Below are positions 7,637 through 8,794 of a stretch of DNA of 16,792 nt, piece after piece; the first letter of the stretch is position 1; every line of letters starts with the position of its first letter. The notes under the pieces were generated by a model, which did not search any database, was not told the DNA's origin, and worked only from the letters and a program-made list of their open reading frames with translations. A program made the position numbers and the translations under genes. Source of the stretch: a virus. Its lineage: Duplodnaviria; Heunggongvirae; Uroviricota; Caudoviricetes. The DNA lies in the IMG/VR virus record IMGVR_UViG_2859810971_000005. One strand, written 5' to 3'.

Positions 7637-7966
7637 TTAATCGTCGTCTTCCGGCAGTGCCAGAATCTTGATCGCGTTCGAATCCACCACGCCACCGCCT
7701 AAATATTTTTGCGTGAAAATTTTGATGAATCCTGGTTCTGTCAGGTTGTCCGGTCTGGTGCGAACACCTGTTTCGTGATCAACAATGTAGTAACCGCGTT
7801 TGAAGTCACCCAGGGCAATAACGTTATCAGGCATAAACTCCAGATATTCGACCGGAAGGCCCAGCAACGTATCAGGATCACCCGCCTGTAAACGGTCGCG
7901 CCAGATATAATCACCGTTCGCGTTCTTCACCTTCTGAAGTTTTGCCGCCGTCGTGGAGTTAACCAC
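7637..7966 (-). CDS. major capsid protein, C-terminal portion (downstream of in-frame TGA)
   Basis: 109-aa reading frame in the SAME frame as 7967-8842, separated only by TGA at 7967-7969. Contains the conserved HK97-fold C-terminal block (NANGDY...ALGDFKRGYYIVDHETGVRTRPDNLTEPGFIKIFTQKYLGGGVVDSNAIKIL). Confidence 0.85.
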   Translation of the reverse strand: MVNSTTAAKLQKVKNANGDYIWRDRLQAGDPDTLLGLPVEYLEFMPDNVIALGDFKRGYYIVDHETGVRTRPDNLTEPGFIKIFTQKYLGGGVVDSNAIKILALPEDDD

Positions 7967-8794
7967 TCAGACCGCGTTTTTGCGGTATTTTTTACGTAAT
8001 GCAAATTTCAGGTCGATCAGCGGGTCCGCAGATGTCCACGCCAGAGATTCGGAAGGTTTAATTACCTGCAACGTACCAAAATCACGCTCTTTGTCGTTCT
8101 TCTCTGCACGGGGTACGGATAAAAAACCTTTTGCTTTTTTGTCACCGTCGCCCACAACCAGATCGCTTTCTTCGGTTTCCGTGAAGGTGTCGCCAATCTC
8201 ACCCGTCAGCCATGAAAGGATGTCCACATCGGAAAAATCCACGATTTCCTGTGTGGTGCGCGGGTACGCATAGACCGGATACAGCTTAATGCTCACCTCG
8301 TTAATCTGCGGGGTGCTGGTCTGTTCGCGTGCCTTACCCTCTTCACCGTGGTTAACGGTCGCACCGCCAGCGGAAACAAGCTGCTTAAACTCGTTGCTGC
8401 TGATTTTCTTCACGGTACAGATGCGGCGCATGGTGGATTCATCCGCCAGCATTCGCATGATTTCGGTGTTCAGTTCAGGGATAACGGTATAACCACCATC
8501 AGCGGGAACGCCTGTACTTAATGCGCGGGTTTCACCGGTCAGAATGTAGTTGCGTAGTTCTGCGGGGTCAGTGGTCTGGCTGCTTTTACCTGGCTTGCTG
8601 CGCTCTTCGTCTGCAATGGCTTCAAGGCGGGAAATGTCTTTATCGAGGGATTCAGCTTTAGCGCGTAATTCGTCAAATTTTGCGCCCTCAGCATCGTTAA
8701 GACTGCGGTTTTCTTTTTCAGCGTTCTCCAGCATGTCGCGCATCTGATTTTTAATGGCGGTTTTCTGCTGGCGTAATTCGATTATTCTCTGCAT
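7967..8794 (-). CDS. major capsid protein (HK97 fold), N-terminal 275 codons ending at a premature in-frame TGA
   Basis: Likely start is ATG at 8792-8794 (AGGA 9 nt upstream; MQRIIELRQQK...); the track's GTG at 8842 is the alternative. Coiled-coil delta-like N-terminus followed by capsid core. Together with 7637-7966 this gives a capsid protein of about 385 aa. Confidence 0.85.
   Translation of the reverse strand: MQRIIELRQQKTAIKNQMRDMLENAEKENRSLNDAEGAKFDELRAKAESLDKDISRLEAIADEERSKPGKSSQTTDPAELRNYILTGETRALSTGVPADGGYTVIPELNTEIMRMLADESTMRRICTVKKISSNEFKQLVSAGGATVNHGEEGKAREQTSTPQINEVSIKLYPVYAYPRTTQEIVDFSDVDILSWLTGEIGDTFTETEESDLVVGDGDKKAKGFLSVPRAEKNDKERDFGTLQVIKPSESLAWTSADPLIDLKFALRKKYRKNAV

Follow-up and report, generated by a model that had tools for sequence, protein, structure and literature searches.

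The in-frame TGA in the major capsid gene of the window (the whole stretch of 16,792 nucleotides analysed here) is very probably a nonsense mutation, Trp276 to stop, that is fixed in the Shigella flexneri lineage and has turned this gene into a pseudogene. The gene lies in a capsid-forming phage-inducible chromosomal island (cfPICI) that is itself decaying. From the sequence we infer that functional capsids are no longer produced and that the island has lost its mobility. An earlier note on this DNA had offered three readings of the TGA, namely an inactivating nonsense mutation, a sequencing error or a leaky stop, and the first is the only one of the three to survive the analysis below.

A single stop codon divides a full-length capsid gene

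We translated the minus-strand frame between positions 7637 and 8842 and found it continuous apart from one internal stop, …LRKKYRKNAV-stop-VVNSTTAAK…, at which the plus-strand letters tca (7967-7969) correspond to TGA on the coding strand (Table 1). The gene begins with ATG at 8794-8792 and ends with TAA at 7639-7637, and the TGA is codon 276, with 275 codons 5′ and 109 codons 3′ of the stop. That the capsid frame runs on across the TGA (7964-7972), that the two parts comprise 275 and 109 codons, and that they jointly encode an HK97-fold capsid protein of normal length had all been claimed in the earlier note; the translation bears out the open frame with its single internal stop, and both counts as well as the coordinates are right. 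Length and fold are borne out by the profile matches. The two fragments match positions 2-274 and 276-383 of NCBIfam TIGR01554 (major_cap_HK97, 385 positions) and thus abut exactly, and the joined protein matches Pfam Phage_capsid PF05065 with E=2.4e-61 and PDB 9GYI over residues 1-385 with E=2.5e-253 at ~98% identity. Full-length profile matches (PF05065/TIGR01554) place the joined protein in the HK97-fold major capsid family. The TGA is a specific sequence feature and not a statistical pattern, and chance is no issue.

The six S. flexneri copies compared share two further substitutions in the capsid gene, Pro2 to Gln (near 8792-8794) and Glu379 to Ala, neither of which occurs in the four E. 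coli copies.

Table 1 Features of the window, with positions, strand and supporting matches
Feature	Positions	Strand	Remarks
phoQ-proximal attachment-site repeat	1537..1611	.	core GGTGTAGTTAATGGTGTAGT at 1542-1561
Conserved hypothetical gene, 93 aa, island end	2258..2539	-	phrog_1561
terL pseudogene, 371-aa and 238-aa ORFs	2553..4213	-	
terS remnant, 123-aa ORF	4197..4568	-	Pfam Terminase_4
97-bp deletion junction, 7-nt microhomology	4527..4533	-	
HNH endonuclease, packaging module, 146 aa	4744..5184	-	phrog_144
Head-tail adaptor/connector, 98 aa	5184..5480	-	phrog_40 head-tail adaptor Ad1
Head closure protein, 112 aa	5477..5815	-	phrog_25 head closure Hc1
Portal protein, 403 aa, intact ORF	5812..7023	-	Pfam Phage_portal
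HK97-family prohead protease, 190 aa, intact ORF	7025..7597	-	Pfam Peptidase_S78
Major capsid protein pseudogene, 385 codons, HK97 fold	7637..8794	-	Pfam, TIGR01554, PDB 9GYI
Capsid C-terminal fragment, 109 aa	7637-7966	-	
In-frame TGA, TGG to TGA, Trp276 to stop	7967..7969	-	orthologues TGG
Capsid N-terminal fragment, 275 aa	7970-8794	-	
ssb-perC fusion ORF, 53 aa	9461..9622	-	deletion ~505 bp, junction 9548-9552
Primase/replicase (D5_N, DUF5906, Pox_D5), intact in window	10501..12249	-	Pfam
IS1 insertion, 768 bp	12768..13535	-	9-bp target duplication
AlpA-type regulator, 62 aa	15003..15188	-	PF05930 Phage_AlpA on identical L006 gene
Tyrosine integrase, 409 aa, intact ORF	15563..16792	-	Pfam

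Tryptophan is the ancestral residue at codon 276

Of 5,426 complete E. coli genomes, 361 contain a close orthologue of the capsid gene, with 95-99% identity at the DNA level, and the most divergent match that we fetched has an intact gene of 1158 nt. In the DNA alignment with E. coli orthologues, TGA versus TGG is the sole difference around the site, and the orthologous proteins read …KNAVWVVNST… where the window has its stop. Among the loci fetched, TGG occupies codon 276 in each of eight E. coli copies and TGA in each of eight S. flexneri copies. The exact 61-mer with TGG is present in 330 of 355 complete E. coli genomes, its versions with TGA or TAG have an exact match in none of the 355, and PDB 9GYI, the capsid of the E. 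coli cfPICI EcCIEDL933, carries W276. As judged from these alignments, the stop is a single-base G-to-A transition in the Trp276 codon (TGG to TGA). The earlier note had proposed this origin and had named the alignment of orthologous capsid genes as the way to check it; TGG, and hence Trp, occupies the site in every E. coli orthologue examined.

The exact 39-mer across the stop occurs in one of 185,579 species-representative genomes, that of S. flexneri SFBU1023. A scan of viral and metagenome contigs for the TGA-containing pattern returned no match, and neither did a search of the capsid region against a phage collection, a result in keeping with a satellite that resides in a chromosome rather than with a sequenced phage. 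The exact 275-aa product is encoded on at least 1000 contigs, and so is the exact 109-aa downstream product; S. flexneri 2a str. 301 and 2003036 are among the names. The truncated 275-aa product is found in 3,556 index blocks of public assemblies, which stem from NCBI, ENA and Logan, represent varied technologies and include complete genomes, drafts and one metagenome. The Trp version of exactly this capsid allele is absent among 15 billion proteins.

S. flexneri CP026810.1 (locus L008) matches the full length of the window with 100% identity. Other S. flexneri copies of the island differ from the window by ~20 SNPs and form at least three groups, all of which have TGA. Because the TGA is common to SNP-distinct S. 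flexneri groups, the stop arose once, before the split of the sublineages sampled.

A sequencing or assembly error over a true TGG, which the earlier note had listed as an option, would agree with a difference of a single base from all E. coli orthologues. It is, however, at odds with an identical truncated product in thousands of index blocks and on at least 1000 contigs obtained with differing technologies, with the TGA in several complete genomes and in sublineages that differ at ~20 island SNPs, and with the nature of the change, which is a substitution and not a homopolymer indel. The recurrence in SNP-distinct sublineages excludes this option for practical purposes, and we regard it as extremely improbable.

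The capsid gene belongs to a chromosomal phage satellite

The capsid gene belongs to a cfPICI of ~15 kb located between phoQ and roxA in S. flexneri. Its genes are ordered int, alpA, small ORFs, DUF4222, primase, capsid, prohead protease, portal, head closure, head-tail adaptor and HNH, followed by a 60-aa ORF, terS, terL and the 93-aa ORF, with phoQ beyond. This layout is the defining architecture of cfPICIs (PMC10085698; bioRxiv 10.1101/2022.09.08.507074). Applying the SatelliteFinder definition of cfPICIs (de Sousa et al. 2023, PMC10085698), we found (i) an integrase, a primase-replicase (Pfam) and an AlpA-type regulator (PF05930) at one end, (ii) all eight head and packaging genes in canonical order, of which capsid, terS and terL are damaged in the window, and (iii) a size of ~15 kb without the tail and holin components that the definition forbids. 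Among all ORFs between the att repeat (~1540-1610) and the integrase, none matched tail, holin or lysis genes, and a complete prophage is ruled out by the absence of tail and lysis genes from this interval. In the S. flexneri copy L006, the island is flanked by a 75-nt imperfect direct repeat, the two att repeats lying 14,502 bp apart; the partner of the phoQ-proximal repeat in Table 1 lies beyond the integrase gene, outside the window. Helper-phage-dependent induction, assembly of the satellite's own small capsids and transfer by hijacked tails are all predicted to fail, given the lesions described here.

Between alpA and the replication genes lies an ORF of 248 aa on the minus strand (14196-14942), possibly a satellite accessory (cargo) gene. 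It had no match in Pfam, PHROGs, NCBIfam or PADLOC, and the comparison of the accessory ORFs of the island with defence families gave no match.

Further lesions point to decay of the island

The capsid gene is not the only damaged gene of the packaging module. Relative to E. coli cfPICIs, a 97-bp deletion has removed the start codon of terS, its ribosome-binding site and upstream intergenic sequence, and the sequence lost may include part of the cos region. The alignment shows the deletion in the window and in L006, the two S. flexneri copies included, and the short terS calls in L007-L012 are consistent with it; in the other S. flexneri copies gene callers resort to internal starts, giving products of 103-108 aa. 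Only in the sublineage of the window, the loss of 1 nt from a G-run (~4558) brings an upstream ATG (4566-4568) into frame with terS and yields the 123-aa ORF, with GAGG 4 nt before the new ATG; this change may have arisen by chance or may partly restore translation of terS. We rejected translational coupling at the new ATG upon reading the sequence, in which the upstream gene ends 10 nt upstream of this ATG, without overlap.

A second deletion, of ~505 bp relative to E. coli RM8385, has removed SSB residues 26-136 together with the first ~52 perC codons, leaving ssb codons 1-25 joined to the C-terminal portion of perC; the identical 53-aa ssb-perC gene call is found in S. flexneri loci L006-L012. 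In terL, a 1-nt deletion in a C-run (CCCC to CCC, ~3253-3255) causes a frameshift that is restricted to the sublineage of the window and L008, and the other S. flexneri copies have an intact terL of 553 aa. The IS1 element is complete (InsA/InsB), is bordered by the target duplication ATTGTTTCG at 12759-12767 and 13536-13544, and interrupts a hypothetical gene of 77 aa. It is likewise confined to the sublineage of the window and is absent from SFBU1023 (L003), L006, L007 and L009-L012. The primase gene of S. flexneri CP004056.1 (L012, ~5904-7657) is split by a 5-nt insertion (GCGCT), an independent later lesion. The prohead protease gene differs from E. coli by a +1/-1 indel pair (7532/7539) that keeps the frame and results in A20G and N22G, and the pair is present in 6 of 6 S. 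flexneri copies compared. The lesions can be placed in order: the capsid stop and the terS and ssb-perC deletions came first, and the terL frameshift and IS1, or the primase frameshift, came later.

Substitutions in the packaging genes were compared between the two species. The ratio of nonsynonymous to synonymous polymorphic codons is 12:6 in S. flexneri and 23:137 in four E. coli copies (Fisher p=4.7e-6), a contrast that fits relaxed constraint with near-neutral SNPs and that, since it sets recent SNPs against older polymorphism, is supportive, not conclusive. Even in functional genes, nonsynonymous changes are over-represented among recent SNPs. In most S. flexneri copies the ORFs of protease, portal, connectors, HNH and terL are still intact; given how young the S. 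flexneri lineage is, these ORFs argue neither for nor against decay to any great extent. The capsid gene thus combines a real inherited lesion, TGA in all eight S. flexneri copies against TGG in all eight E. coli copies, with relaxed selection and further lesions of the module (terS, terL, ssb-perC), as expected of a pseudogene.

Loss of the capsid could also have been selected (domestication), either because the host benefits from regulatory, replication or accessory genes of an immobilised island or because a 275-aa fragment poisons related HK97-type assembly. Such selection would accord with a mutation fixed across S. flexneri in an island that has not been deleted, with integrase, alpA and primase ORFs that are intact in most copies, and with the uncharacterised 248-aa accessory ORF that the island holds. 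Fixation of neutral or mildly deleterious mutations is, however, expected in a clonal pathogen of small population size, the replication side has been hit too in sublineages (IS1 in the window, the primase frameshift in L012), and the defence families gave no match. We consider selected loss decidedly unlikely, and the decay of a satellite whose capsid gene had become a pseudogene remains the preferred reading.

The truncated product would lack essential parts of the capsid fold

In EcCIEDL933, mutation of any gene of the packaging module abolishes transfer and leaves replication unaffected, with the exception of the hypothetical gene 1792, the loss of which only severely reduces transfer (bioRxiv 10.1101/2022.09.08.507074). 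PDB 9GYI is the EcCIEDL933 capsid model, T=4 with an HK97-like fold, and satellites with the substitution K290D, E319K or R345D in this capsid protein no longer transfer, whereas with D295K transfer falls 100-fold (bioRxiv 10.1101/2025.02.11.637232). Residues 290, 295, 319 and 345 have the same numbering in the C-terminal fragment of the window and all lie past codon 276. A product that ends at residue 275 therefore lacks portions of the fold that experiments have proved essential, as far as a 98% identical protein can stand for the one encoded here.

With G changed to A in the Trp276 codon, translation would end after residue 275. The 275-aa product would retain the N-terminal scaffolding (delta) domain, the N-arm and the E-loop and would lack the last 109 residues, which form part of the A- and P-domains. 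Without capsid protein, neither the formation of T=4 heads nor the packaging of satellite DNA would be expected; for this reason the satellite would be stranded in the chromosome, where it would decay further.

A trace of full-length protein is likely to arise by read-through with tRNA-Trp, and insertion of Trp would recreate the wild type. Whether such read-through, leaky or programmed, keeps the satellite functional is a different matter. Of all stop codons, UGA is the most readily read through by near-cognate tRNAs, insertion of Trp would restore the ancestral residue, and most other head genes are open in most S. flexneri copies; a leaky stop had been among the options of the earlier note. 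Against a functional role stands, above all, the distribution of the stop, which is limited to one lineage, the exact TGG 61-mer being present in 330 of the 355 E. coli genomes. For the 76 nt around the stop and 3′ of it, the predicted fold is no better than that of shuffled sequences (z=-0.54), and a search of the window for tRNA genes and Rfam families returned no match. The termination context is UGA-G, in which G is not the weakest context. A T=4 head requires ~235 capsid subunits by calculation, and the truncated product would be present in large excess, a setting in which traces of read-through are an implausible source of a whole T=4 shell. The loss of the terS start in S. flexneri copies would still block packaging, and the packaging genes are gaining nonsynonymous changes and new frameshifts. 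We found neither a stop conserved among orthologues nor a stimulatory downstream structure or context, by which programmed read-through is recognized. With a stop in one lineage only, no RNA structure or tRNA and a packaging module that is broken or drifting, we discard the leaky stop as a functional device and consider it very unlikely that read-through maintains the satellite. It is more improbable still that rare Trp read-through gives occasional capsids or that the abundant 275-aa fragment acts as a dominant-negative poison of HK97-type assembly that shields S. flexneri from related satellites or helper phages.

Capsid fragments of the same length elsewhere have other origins

C-terminal capsid fragments of 109 aa are known from E. 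coli and from a 74%-identical family, and three of them were read at the DNA level. We rejected the possibility that the stop recurs at codon 276 elsewhere: the fragments read as DNA stem from other lesions, and their codon 276 is TGG. The fragments originate from homopolymer frameshifts in L017-L019 and, in L014 and L016, from a TAG that precedes the Trp codon by six codons. In each case the gene caller starts at the GTG of Val277 (ATG in L014 and L016), from which the length of 109 aa results. The common length is a gene-calling artefact, because the upstream lesions differ, codon 276 is TGG and the caller starts at codon 277.

L014 (2164-3330) and L016 (367-1533) represent a separate cfPICI lineage, in which the capsid gene carries the TAG in the context …YKLK-stop-KYRKNAVW…, seen on 23 contigs. 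The capsid C-terminus of this lineage shows 74% identity. Its TAG is an independent knock-out of the capsid gene in another satellite, and capsid nonsense mutations arise independently in cfPICIs at differing positions, as decay predicts.

The fragments bear on two further readings of the TGA, a codon for selenocysteine and a deliberately split gene, the halves of which co-assemble after reinitiation at GUG behind the UGA. A GTG does directly follow the TGA, and gene callers report a second ORF of 109 aa. The intact orthologues, however, have the identical GTG at Val277, and because of this its presence after the stop is coincidental; the 109-aa fragments of the databases stem from differing upstream lesions with TGG at codon 276, and the break falls inside the HK97 fold. 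As for selenocysteine, the orthologues have Trp and neither Cys nor Sec at the site, and the fold of the 76 nt around the stop contains no SECIS-like hairpin. The probability of either reading is vanishingly small.

Significance and comparison with known systems

The stop makes the capsid gene a nonsense pseudogene of the textbook kind; it does not signal recoding and carries little mechanistic weight. Its value is modest and lies in annotation and in satellite biology. Public annotations already list the 275-aa and 109-aa capsid fragments, as separate 'bacteriophage protein' ORFs, and the two should be combined in a single pseudogene entry. The S. flexneri island beside phoQ should be labelled as a defective (grounded) cfPICI and left out of counts of mobile satellites. 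Its successive lesions form a natural series with which the decay of the satellite could be dated along the S. flexneri tree.

With programmed UGA read-through and selenocysteine recoding, the capsid gene shares only an in-frame UGA with an open frame beyond it. It differs from both in that the stop is unconserved, a downstream signal is lacking and the ancestral codon encodes Trp.

The island closely resembles EcCIEDL933, the prototype cfPICI of E. coli O157:H7 EDL933: both have the same order of int, alpA, primase and capsid through terL, both lack tail and lysis genes at a size of ~15 kb, and the repaired capsid protein shares ~98% identity across all 385 residues. Unlike EcCIEDL933, the S. 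flexneri copy has a stop in place of Trp276 and has lost the terS start and most of ssb-perC, and the copy in the window has in addition the terL frameshift and the IS1 insertion. On the strength of these sequence differences, the S. flexneri island should be unable to make capsids or to package DNA.

Shigella genomes are known for the accumulation of pseudogenes and for gene decay that accompanies IS expansion. The island shares with Shigella pseudogenes and 'grounded' prophages a fixed nonsense mutation, IS1, small deletions, frameshifts and near-neutral substitutions. It differs from the 'grounded' defective prophages in that the element decaying in S. flexneri is a phage satellite and not a complete prophage.
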